NCBI GenBank assembly: GCA_030620975.1
Contig: JAUXIO010000001.1
Location: 1 to 58,092, forward strand
DNA from: Dehalococcoidia bacterium
GTDB lineage: Bacteria > Chloroflexota > Dehalococcoidia > GIF9 > JAUXIO01
Length of the DNA stretch: 58,092 nucleotides
Reading direction: 5' to 3'
The translations under genes and the position numbers were made by a program. Positions 42,064-44,122 of the stretch are shown here, piece by piece. Position 1 is the stretch's first letter. Each line of letters starts with the position of its first letter. Below the pieces are notes generated by a model that did no database searches, was not told the DNA's origin, and was given only the letters and a program-made list of their open reading frames with translations.

Positions 42064-43485
42064 CTAGGGGCGGCGACCTCGTTTTAAATACCGCCTTGGT
42101 GCTCTAGTATCCCGGCCTACATTTATATCACCGCGATAATCGGGCACGGTGATGTTGAACACCAGACTGAGGCTGGGATCTACCATTCGTGAGCTGATGC
42201 GAGCCTCAATTTCCTCTAAGGAAAAGCAGGTGGTGATCACCGTTGGTAGCCGAGCATTGTACCTGTAATTGATTAATTGGTAGAGTTTTTCCTGTGCCCA
42301 AGGTGTGGTTGATTGCTCACCGAAGTCGTCGAGGATGAGCAGAGGTGTTTTTTTAACCTGTTCAAAAACTTTATCATAAGATACTTTGCTGTCTGGACTG
42401 AAGGTAGAACGCAGGTAATCAAGGAGGTCGGCAACAACTATAAACAAAGCCGGCTCGCCGACTTGAAGCCGATAGTTGGCAATGGCGCAGGCTAGGTGGG
42501 TTTTGCCACAGCCATTACCTCCCTGGAATACTAGCCAGCCTTGGGGAGATTGAGCGAAGTTTAGAGCAATGTGGAAGGCCTGCTCTAGATTTTGGCGCTG
42601 CTGAGGCAAGAGGTTCAGCCGTTTAGAATCAAAATTCTCAAAAGTCATATTCCGCAGTAGCTCTAATTCTAAACCATCTAGCTGTTTTAGAGCCGATACT
42701 GGACTTTCTTCAATTACATACATCTGGCAGAATTGGGAATCAGCAAGGCGGCTGCGTAAACTCTCCTCTAATCTCTCTAAAGGTACATTAGTGGTAATTA
42801 CTGTGGGCAGCTCAATATTGAAGCGGTGATCTAGCAATTGATCCAATTTCTGTTTTGCCCAAGCGGTGGCATTCTCAGTATTTAGGTCGTCCAGTATTAG
42901 GAGGGCGGCATTGCTTACTTGTTCAAAAAGCTCATCGTAGGCTGTCTGGCTGCTGGGGCTGAAGGTGGAGCGGAGATGGTCTAGCAGGTCGGCAGCCCTT
43001 ATATAGAAAACCGGCTGTGTCGAGCTCAAACGGTAGTTGGCGATAGCACAGACTAGGTGGGTCTTACCACAACCAGTGGGACCCAAAAAGACTAGCCAAT
43101 TTTGAGGGTTACTGGCAAAAATTTTGGCAGCTTCATAGGCGAGGGAAAAATGCTTTTGCGAGGTGGCATTTCCCCATCGTCCTCTGGGTGAAAGATTATC
43201 GAAAGTAAACCGGGATAAGTGACCTAAATTGCTGTAGCGCTCAAGATAGTTAAGCTGCTTTTTTTGTAATTCTTTCGTGGTGCAGGGGCAAGGCCTTACT
43301 CGGCTAAAATCGGGGCGATTTGAAGCTAGAAGGGGGTGAATGAAGCCAGAACCCTTGCAAAGGGGACAGTTGGGGTCGGGAACATCCTCTTCCCCTTGGC
43401 TAGCGTTTGACCAGGTGTCCGTATTTACCCCTGATGTATTTGTTGGGGTCGGTTTCCTTTTTAGAATATCTCCTAGGCTTTCCAT
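42064..43485 (-). CDS. tandem-duplicated DnaC/DnaI-like AAA+ helicase loader with an N-terminal CxxCxGxG zinc finger
   Basis: Two homologous modules each carry Walker A (GPTGCGKTH / GGNGCGKTH) and Walker B (LLILDD). The N-terminus has CPLCKGSGF plus CPC. The ATG at 43485 (SD-like GAGGG) is preferred. The track ORF starts at a TTG at 43527. Confidence 0.75.
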   Translation of the reverse strand: [473 protein letters not shown]

Positions 43486-44122
43486 CGTCTTTGCCCTCGG
43501 TGGTCCAGCGTTCGAGGATGCGAGCAATGTACCTCCAGTTACGCTTATTTAAGGCTACAGCCTCTCTAAAGGCGCTTTCAATCCACTCTGGTGGGTAGAG
43601 TTTTTCAGCCTCTCGAAGTTCCTCAGCAATCATTGGCGTTAGCATACCTACATTTTGCTCGTAGAGGCTGAAAATATTTGGCGGCTGAGCAATGCTTATG
43701 GGCGTTTCTCTCCTGAGAGTTAGCTCTCCCAGGGAAAGCTCTCCACGTTGGATTTTATCTACAGTTTTCCTTTCCTTTTCAGTGTTGAGGAAATAAATAT
43801 CTTCGGTTTTGCCATCCCTATCTAGAGTTAGATGGAGTATAGTGCCGCGTTCAATCGCCAAATCCAAGGCGTGGCGAATCATTTCTGCTGGGTGCTTCAT
43901 TTCTTCTTTTATTTCGCTCCCCAGGGGGCTAGCTGATATAAGTTCATCTTGGGTGACGAGGCGGGGGTAACCGCGCTTTTGGTAAAGTAGCCAGAAGATA
44001 TGCAGCGTCACCTTGAGTTCGGCAATGTCCTCAATTTTGGGCATAAGTTCGGTCAAAAAAAAGTTGGGCACGGGAGTAAACTCCATTCTTGCCGGGAAAC
44101 CTGAGAAATGCTTCTTTTTCAT
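43400..44122 (-). CDS. DnaD-domain replication/primosome protein
   Basis: IFSLYEQNVGMLTPMIAEELREAEKLYPPEWIESAFREAVALNKRNWRYIARILERW matches the DnaD/DnaB_2 C-terminal domain pattern. Confidence 0.75.
   Translation of the reverse strand: MKKKHFSGFPARMEFTPVPNFFLTELMPKIEDIAELKVTLHIFWLLYQKRGYPRLVTQDELISASPLGSEIKEEMKHPAEMIRHALDLAIERGTILHLTLDRDGKTEDIYFLNTEKERKTVDKIQRGELSLGELTLRRETPISIAQPPNIFSLYEQNVGMLTPMIAEELREAEKLYPPEWIESAFREAVALNKRNWRYIARILERWTTEGKDDGKPRRYSKKETDPNKYIRGKYGHLVKR

Follow-up and report, generated by a model that had tools for sequence, protein, structure and literature searches.

Loading of the replicative helicase in bacteria is known from DnaC and DnaI, each of which acts as six separate AAA+ subunits, and more recently from DciA. 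In a crystal structure of DnaB with DnaI, one helicase hexamer is bound by three loader dimers, and the two monomers contact the helicase differently (PMC3791466). Domesticated loader genes of the dna[CI] type are defined by a pattern of mutual exclusion with dciA (PMC5109545). That study (Brezellec et al. 2016) reports one dna[CI] domestication in Chloroflexi, with a resident PF01695 gene and no DciA in Dehalococcoides, Anaerolinea, Chloroflexus and Roseiflexus (PMC5109545). Here we examine a gene of this kind in a 58,092-nucleotide (nt) stretch from a Dehalococcoidia bacterium of the phylum Chloroflexota (contig JAUXIO010000001.1 of assembly GCA_030620975.1, positions 1 to 58,092); the whole stretch is called the window below. 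DnaC/DnaI loaders have one AAA+ module per chain, and the loader encoded here has two, placed behind an N-terminal Cys4 zinc motif.

The features of the gene are given below. Residue numbers refer to a 473-amino-acid (aa) form unless 487-aa numbering is stated, and DnaC residue numbers are those of PMC8213410. Conservation was counted in 118 close relatives and in a separate set of 82 diverse representatives. M1 and M2 denote the first and second modules, and HMM stands for hidden Markov model.

42064..43485, minus strand: loader coding sequence, 473 aa plus stop (42064-42066), from the open reading frame (ORF) list, the translation and the starts of homologues
43453..43485, minus strand: conserved N-terminal peptide, residues 1-11, within the overlap with the dnaD-like gene
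43282..43368, minus strand: Cys4 zinc motif, residues 40-68, CPLCKGSGF...(22 aa)...CPC, conserved in relatives
42700..43236, minus strand: AAA+ module 1 (M1-type, faster-evolving), residues 84-262, module HMM E 3e-89
43060..43083, minus strand: M1 Walker A, GPTGCGKT, residues 135-142, G/K/T in 118/118 close relatives
42883..42903, minus strand: M1 Walker B, LLILDDL, residues 195-201 (D199, D200), kept in relatives
42787..42801, minus strand: M1 sensor I, VITTN (N233)
42739..42765, minus strand: M1 box VII equivalent, ESLRSRLAD, residues 241-249, Arg-finger position R247, with no sensor II after it
42670..42699, minus strand: linker between the modules, residues 263-272, low-confidence in the AlphaFold2 (AF2) model
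42127..42669, minus strand: AAA+ module 2 (M2-type, conserved core), residues 273-453, module HMM E 2e-94
42499..42522, minus strand: M2 Walker A, GGNGCGKT, residues 322-329, kept in relatives
42322..42342, minus strand: M2 Walker B, LLILDDF, residues 382-388, followed by an invariant G-E
42226..42240, minus strand: M2 sensor I position, VITTC (C420); DnaC has Asn203
42178..42207, minus strand: M2 box, residues 427-436, with R429 and R433 four apart, both in 118/118
42127..42144, minus strand: M2 sensor II, PDYRGD (R451)
42067..42126, minus strand: basic C-terminal tail, residues 454-473, from the translation

A first-pass annotation made from the DNA alone had described a helicase-loader type of protein with two covalently linked and homologous AAA+ modules, each with a Walker A and a Walker B motif, which arose by an old duplication and have both been maintained. 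All of these points held up. Pfam finds two separate IstB_IS21 / Bac_DnaA / AAA stretches in the protein (that of module 1 spans 128-261 in 487-aa numbering). PF01695 scores 118.5 bits over two stretches against a cut-off of 24.1 (total E 4e-34), and the protein passes the cut-off of the PRK08116 subfamily of unnamed DnaC-like ATPases (NF005992; 231.8 versus 189 bits, summed over two stretches). The halves align to each other gaplessly by BLASTP, with 80 identities in 169 residues (47%, E 4e-56). The duplication is old, because over the same 169 codons the DNA copies are just 55% identical, third positions agree at 38%, and a shared codon underlies no more than 34 of the 80 residue identities. 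Among solved structures, the protein is closest in sequence to E. coli DnaC (6QEL), Aquifex DnaC (3EC2) and DnaI (2W58 and 4M4W), and one module superposes by Foldseek on DnaI 2w58 with a template-modelling (TM) score of 0.73 and a root-mean-square deviation (rmsd) of 3.1 Å.

Both modules carry GxxGxGKT and hhhhDD. M1 has Walker A and B, N233 at sensor I and R247 but is without sensor II; in M2, Walker A and B, R429/R433 and R451 are present, but sensor I is a cysteine (C420). The full catalytic motif set (Walker A/B, polar sensor I, Arg finger, sensor II) is thus found in neither module alone and in both together. By their R-x-x-x-R-hydrophobic spacing, R429 and R433 would correspond to the Arg-coupler R216 and the Arg-finger R220 of DnaC. 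An ungapped HMMER alignment that pairs R433 with DnaC R216 was set aside, as the same spacing favors R433 = R220. The PDYR of M2 is comparable to a sensor II motif of DnaC that we take to be SYR(237).

DciA is absent from the window's genome (1.02 Mb, 94.7% complete). Of 401 genomes from the phylum, 252 have the loader module (E<=1e-25), 130 have DciA and 19 have neither. Module and DciA never co-occur, and the sets of families that carry them are disjoint; hence, it appears that the protein is the resident replicative helicase loader. Replacement of this kind between dna[CI] and dciA is a described pattern (PMC5109545), and the family is very probably the Chloroflexi dna[CI] listed there. In a separate observation, several genomes of one family (f87) contain neither loader nor DciA, or weak DciA hits only.

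We consider how such a chain might work, and on balance the likeliest reading is that it is a resident DnaC/DnaI-class loader that acts with the DnaD-like protein to place DnaB on DNA, with its modules as neighbors in the loader spiral and three chains per hexamer. In a lineage that lacks DciA, the loader and the DnaD-like protein encoded upstream would together deliver DnaB. The N-terminal peptide and Cys4 zinc domain would form the probable DnaB-binding handle, by analogy with the N-terminal domain of DnaI. M1 and M2 would occupy neighboring positions of the spiral that DnaC and DnaI build from separate subunits, so that three chains supply six modules facing one DnaB hexamer, and the covalent tandem may be seen as a hard-wired form of the DnaI dimer. 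The first-pass annotation had suggested that a covalent dimer would change the stoichiometry and geometry of helicase loading, which is plausible. Within the chain, M2 would be a self-sufficient core: it has sensor II, its Arg-coupler/Arg-finger pair never varies, and neither does the G-E that follows its Walker B. M1 would be an amplifiable accessory copy that still binds nucleotide and single-stranded DNA (ssDNA), although its sensor II is gone and, in the majority of close relatives, its Arg finger as well. If the two alternate in a ring, the M1 pocket would be completed by the invariant M2 arginine, and the M2 pocket, with its Cys sensor I, would be faced by a variable M1 residue, giving two classes of ATP site.

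The conservation counts bear on this division. Walker A G/K/T and Walker B DD are present in both modules of the 118 close relatives, apart from two D-to-E replacements at the first acidic position of M1, and Walker A/B are also found in both modules of nearly all of the 82 diverse representatives. Uniform degeneracy of one module in relatives, named beforehand as a finding that would count against the annotation, is seen in neither set. At the positions of the DnaC ssDNA tetrad K143/F146/S177/Y179, both modules have R/F/T/W, in 117-118 of the 118 for M1 and in 118/118 for M2. The halves are otherwise non-equivalent, M1 being without sensor II and mostly having His at the Arg-finger position, and M2 having Cys at sensor I. 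At sensor I (DnaC N203), M1 has D in 112 and N in five of the close relatives, and M2 has Cys in 114; N is seen in 44 M1 modules of the diverse set, in which the M2 position is variable. The Arg-coupler (DnaC R216) is R in 95 M1 and all 118 M2 modules. At the Arg-finger (DnaC R220), M1 has H in 90 and R in 23, and M2 has R in 118. Sensor II (DnaC R237) is found in 0/118 M1 modules, and as PDYR in 116/118 M2 modules; the G-E after Walker B is variable in M1 and invariant in M2. Mean pairwise identity is 85% for M2 versus 77% for M1, and M2 thus evolves more slowly. As to which sites hydrolyze ATP, we infer that the two kinds are unlikely to be equivalent, since E. coli DnaC has no ATPase activity once any of its five canonical residues is lost (PMC8213410).

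Several of these features would also be accounted for if M2 alone were the loader motor and M1 a non-catalytic adaptor for another contact, such as the DnaD-like protein, DnaA or DNA, with no part in a shared ATPase ring. M1 in this clade has no sensor II and, for the most part, no Arg finger, it evolves faster, the lineages without it are viable, and the modules that become amplified are of the M1 type. However, nearly all relatives retain Walker A/B, a polar sensor I and the equivalents of all four ssDNA contacts in M1, which would be unexpected for a mere adaptor, and in other classes of the phylum M1 looks canonical and M2 degenerate. We regard the adaptor explanation as unlikely, though the strongest of the alternatives.

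The number of modules is itself variable, ranging from one to four at the same syntenic locus. Two modules are the majority state: in the phylum table, 43 of 50 members of the class have at least two module hits and seven have one, and outside the class at least 14 further families have two adjacent hits in one frame of 450-600 aa. One-module loaders of 269-290 aa occupy the same syntenic position in four lineages within the class (G054, G036, G039, G241), and one-module proteins of other classes measure 266-325 aa. Three modules are found in P0123 (792 aa) and four in P0006 (827 aa) and P0010 (845 aa). Both four-module genes are found downstream of dnaB, with P0006 immediately behind a DnaB_2-domain gene. 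Two further observations were made at these loci. Between dnaB and P0010 there are 625 nt without a called gene (L006:5377-6000), where other loci have the dnaD-like gene; the dnaB beside P0006 (L005:3433-5259) encodes 608 aa with an intein-splicing domain, PF14890.

A maximum-likelihood tree of modules recovers an M1-type clade of the class (96% by the Shimodaira-Hasegawa-like approximate likelihood ratio test, SH-aLRT) and an M2-type clade (82%) that takes in all single-module loaders of the class. These single-module proteins carry TTC (with Cys at sensor I), RISSR and PDYR. The extra modules of P0010, P0123 and P0006 are recent copies of the internal (M1) type, with 99-100% support. The backbone of the tree is weak, so that the duplications in Dehalococcoidia and in other classes may be one event or more than one. 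In one single-module genome (G054) the start of an M1 unit is joined to the start of an M2 unit (...EYSNL|SSLLRKMTF...), which looks like the expected product of unequal recombination between repeats. M2 is the conserved core, the lineages that reverted to one module keeping only M2. The tandem is not a fixed design: loaders at this locus follow the architecture Zn-(M1-type)n-(M2-type), where n runs from 0 to 3.

A bolder extension of this, which we put forward only tentatively, is that the Chloroflexota loader is a variable-number AAA+ concatemer, Zn-(M1)n-M2 with n = 0-3, that would assemble on DnaB as a spiral in which catalytic and non-catalytic ATP sites are obligatorily mixed. Since chains of one, two, three and four modules serve the same locus, the loader assembly would on this reading be no fixed hexamer. 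If the concatemer reading is true, bacterial helicase loading would tolerate or exploit both a varying count of loader ATP sites and no more than one or a few handles for helicase binding on each DnaB ring.

The same variation bears on a two-tier arrangement, in which six chains per DnaB hexamer would stack M1 and M2 as two rings or spirals, like D1 and D2 of type II AAA+ proteins. The tandem layout does resemble that of p97, NSF and ClpB, each chain has one zinc handle just as each DnaC has one N-terminal domain, and the best whole-model Foldseek hits are p97/Cdc48 chains. These matches have a TM score of ~0.4 and an rmsd above 10 Å, and so reflect no more than the presence of two P-loop domains; because of that rmsd the p97-type hits were dismissed as a guide to geometry. 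The modules are of the initiator/loader clade, whose members assemble as open spirals, and one to four modules at one locus, with the extras being recent M1 duplicates, fit additive neighbors better than fixed tiers. A two-tier loader is therefore improbable, more so than an M1 adaptor.

For the N-terminal region the first-pass annotation needs revision. CPLCKGSGF and CPC are both present, at residues 40-48 and 66-68, and supply the four cysteines C40, C43, C66 and C68; among 38 relatives C43, C66 and C68 are invariant and C40 is kept in at least 90%. Throughout the phylum, C-P-x-C-x-G-x-G-[FY]...P-C-x-C is seen again in one-, two-, three- and four-module proteins. An xxIL[KR] motif likewise recurs at the N-termini of relatives across the phylum. 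Basic C-terminal tails, variable in length, are found in relatives too. The DnaJ zinc finger has four CxxCxGxG repeats and two zinc centers. The region here has one CxxCxGxG and one CxC, that is, a single Cys4 site and no repeated array, and the N-terminal 99 residues match no Pfam family even at E<=10. The annotation's "DnaJ-type" finger (PF00684) was accordingly rejected, and the likeness appears to be a local resemblance only. By position, the Cys4 region corresponds to the zinc-binding helicase-interaction domain that DnaI is described as carrying (PMC2673437), and it is a candidate functional counterpart of that domain. A second DnaC-like gene in the window's genome lies on a 2.7-kb contig (G000 contig C49, L003:107-913). 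It encodes a single-module protein of 268 aa whose N-terminal Cys motif is of the same type (CPVC...CRWC) and whose branch in the module tree is very long, and it may be part of a mobile element or prophage.

A number of results weigh against the reading of a DnaC/DnaI-class loader with paired, unequal modules in a three-chain spiral. The protein does not reach the cut-off of the DnaC equivalog NF005931 (134.7 versus 357 bits) or of the DnaI equivalog NF006505 (112.9 versus 228 bits), and the Pfam search gave no homology between the zinc domain and the N-terminal domain of DnaI. An AF2 model of the whole chain, built on a 38-sequence alignment, has confident modules and low-confidence placement between them (predicted TM score, pTM, 0.43; predicted local distance difference test, pLDDT, below 50 at residues 261-276), and so neither supports nor contradicts the side-by-side geometry; over the zinc-motif region, residues 41-80, its pLDDT is just 47-71. 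The four-module chains P0006 and P0010 do not divide evenly into six, a misfit with which an open-ended spiral of variable length would be compatible. In the 82 diverse representatives the Arg finger is usual in both modules (76/82 and 74/82), and in other classes it is M2, not M1, that seems more degenerate, M1 looking canonical. The M1/M2 asymmetry is thus clade-specific. The single-module loaders with Cys at sensor I presumably work as homo-oligomers, and Cys at this position need not mean a dead site. A simpler assignment, with the M1 site active and the M2 site dead, was weakened both by these single-module M2-type loaders and by the reversal of the asymmetry in other classes.

The genes around the loader are listed next.

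45509..45961, minus strand: rplI (ribosomal protein L9), first in the conserved array; an ORF with relatives upstream of dnaB in most related loci
44133..45509, minus strand: dnaB, replicative helicase (PF03796 E 2.6e-98, PF00772 E 1.8e-33)
43400..44122, minus strand: dnaD-like gene with DnaB_2 / DnaD domain (PF07261 E 1.5e-12, TIGR01446 E 6.6e-15)
41493..42056, minus strand: HNH endonuclease gene (PF14279, PF01844), 7 nt downstream of the loader

The Pfam domains bear out the order dnaB, dnaD-like, loader, HNH that had been read from the DNA. The order rplI-dnaB-dnaD-like-loader is seen in all 64 related loci with enough upstream DNA, and the dnaD-like gene adjoins the loader in 64/64; these loci are of close relatives (58-67% identity) found with M2-derived search patterns. 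In distant loci, taken from a separate genome search, the same order is found in distant families of the phylum, and in complete genomes of 1.4-1.9 Mb (L088, L089) it is accompanied by flanking trxB, HNH, PSP1 and holB. At the P0010 locus (L006), the gene called upstream of dnaB at the rplI position carries Ribosomal_L9_N/C. The HNH gene adjoins the loader in 41 of 73 related loci and is thus frequent, not constant. HNH neighbors are also present in complete genomes of the class (L088, L089), and none was seen in the loci examined from other classes of the phylum. Given a loader start at ATG 43485, the dnaD-like gene and the loader overlap on the same strand by 86 nt (43400-43485), and in the distant relatives L088 and L089 the overlaps are ~77-80 nt by longest-ORF calling. 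Both frames of the overlap seem constrained, because the first residues of the loader form a conserved peptide. In one genome (G295, L101:4040-5950), a DnaD-like region and a two-module loader share one open frame of 636 aa; its translation has X residues (N/ambiguous bases), and it may be an assembly artifact rather than a true fusion.

This setting also argues strongly against a leftover of a mobile element or prophage, whether a transposition helper of the IstB type from IS21 or a replication module of a phage. In favor of such a leftover, IstB_IS21 is the top Pfam name, the trio of DnaD-like, DnaC-like and HNH genes is reminiscent of phage replication modules, the closest entries of the phage collection are DnaC-like phage proteins, and dna[CI] genes are themselves thought to be phage-derived (PMC5109545). 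Yet the IstB equivalog NF038214 is not reached (140 versus 200 bits), there is no transposase (IstA) among the neighbors in the window or in the related loci examined, the rplI-dnaB synteny is fixed across the whole class, the gene is exclusive with DciA, and both modules together occur in 0/102 matching phage records. That the gene is such a leftover, and not the cell's loader, is very improbable.

Full-length tandem orthologs are present in 289 of 301 genomes of the class, and in 222 of the 223 of high quality (at least 90% complete, at most 5% contaminated). Among the genome matches listed, the query is covered from residue ~1 to ~470 in one open frame. Thousands of matches came from a search of 5.8 billion proteins; those listed are nearly all of 430-497 aa with 88-99% query coverage, and among listed matches with a named source all are Dehalococcoidia or Chloroflexi/Chloroflexota. 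That two adjacent single-module genes were read as one through an assembly or annotation artifact, a possibility raised in advance and to which only the 321-aa gene call in the window lends color, can be dismissed almost entirely, as the ORF (42064..43527, minus strand) is uninterrupted in the ORF list and translation, with no stop or frameshift, and the single-ORF tandem recurs in hundreds of independent assemblies, closed chromosomes included.

The start of the gene needs one correction. The first-pass ORF began at an in-frame TTG at 43527, which would give 14 extra residues. The most likely start is ATG 43485 (473 aa), because homologs start at the equivalent MESLG: P0002, which is 97% identical, and many other 473-aa homologs begin MESLG[DE]ILK at this position. 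The deposited gene call, P0008 (42064-43029), begins MSSTQPVFY inside module 1 and comprises the last 321 residues only, losing the zinc motif and the M1 Walker A; to judge by its homologs it is a mis-call. Automated annotation can hide the tandem in this way, as gene callers can truncate.

The family itself was already known (PMC5109545), and what would seem to be new here is the variation in module number and the asymmetry of the modules. The consulted portions of the text and supplements of PMC5109545 contain no mention of a tandem or duplicated AAA+ module, and full-text searches on tandem or fused DnaC-type loaders and on Dehalococcoides loaders found no description of a tandem or multi-module form, though one may exist outside the literature searched. 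In the Dehalococcoidia, a large and environmentally important class, most genomes have the tandem, and the dna[CI] list of Brezellec 2016 includes cultured Dehalococcoides strains (PMC5109545). Which of the six loader sites have to bind or hydrolyze ATP is hard to test in homo-oligomers, as any mutation is then present in every subunit. A covalent dimer found in nature, whose relatives at one locus include trimers, tetramers and one-module revertants, permits site-specific mutation of alternating positions, and the same series permits direct tests of stoichiometry and of how many loader ATP sites a helicase requires.

Among known systems, p97/NSF/ClpB, dynein and midasin form rings of concatenated AAA+ modules that divide labor between catalytic and degenerate sites. 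The loader resembles them in its covalent concatenation and in this kind of division; they belong to other AAA+ clades, act on other substrates and share no sequence relation with it beyond the P-loop fold. IS21 IstB (5BQ5, 8Q3W) belongs to the same Pfam family and has a similar C-terminal [D/E]S-Y-R sensor II motif, but the loader is without an IstA partner or mobile-element context, and the N-terminal domains differ.

The closest likenesses are to the two described loaders. Bacillus subtilis DnaI (2W58, 4M4W), whose partners are DnaD and DnaB(Bsu), has its AAA+ fold of the DnaC/DnaI type behind a zinc-binding N-terminal region, a layout that the loader, with its putative zinc domain, would share. 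The loader gene here directly follows a DnaB_2/DnaD-domain gene, an order that we take to be the same in the dnaB-dnaI pair of B. subtilis. Unlike DnaI, the loader has two covalent, non-equivalent AAA+ modules (one to four in relatives), and its zinc motif is a Cys4 with its own spacing. E. coli DnaC (6QEL/6QEM) and Aquifex aeolicus DnaC (3EC2/3ECC) are its best sequence matches among solved structures, and share Walker A/B, the sensor I position, an Arg-coupler/Arg-finger pair four apart, sensor II and the ssDNA tetrad. DnaC differs in being a single module with a helical, non-zinc N-terminal domain and in acting as six separate subunits per DnaB hexamer, whereas the loader has Cys at sensor I in M2 and no sensor II in M1. 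As with DnaC, it is a resident gene that stands in the place of DciA (PMC5109545).

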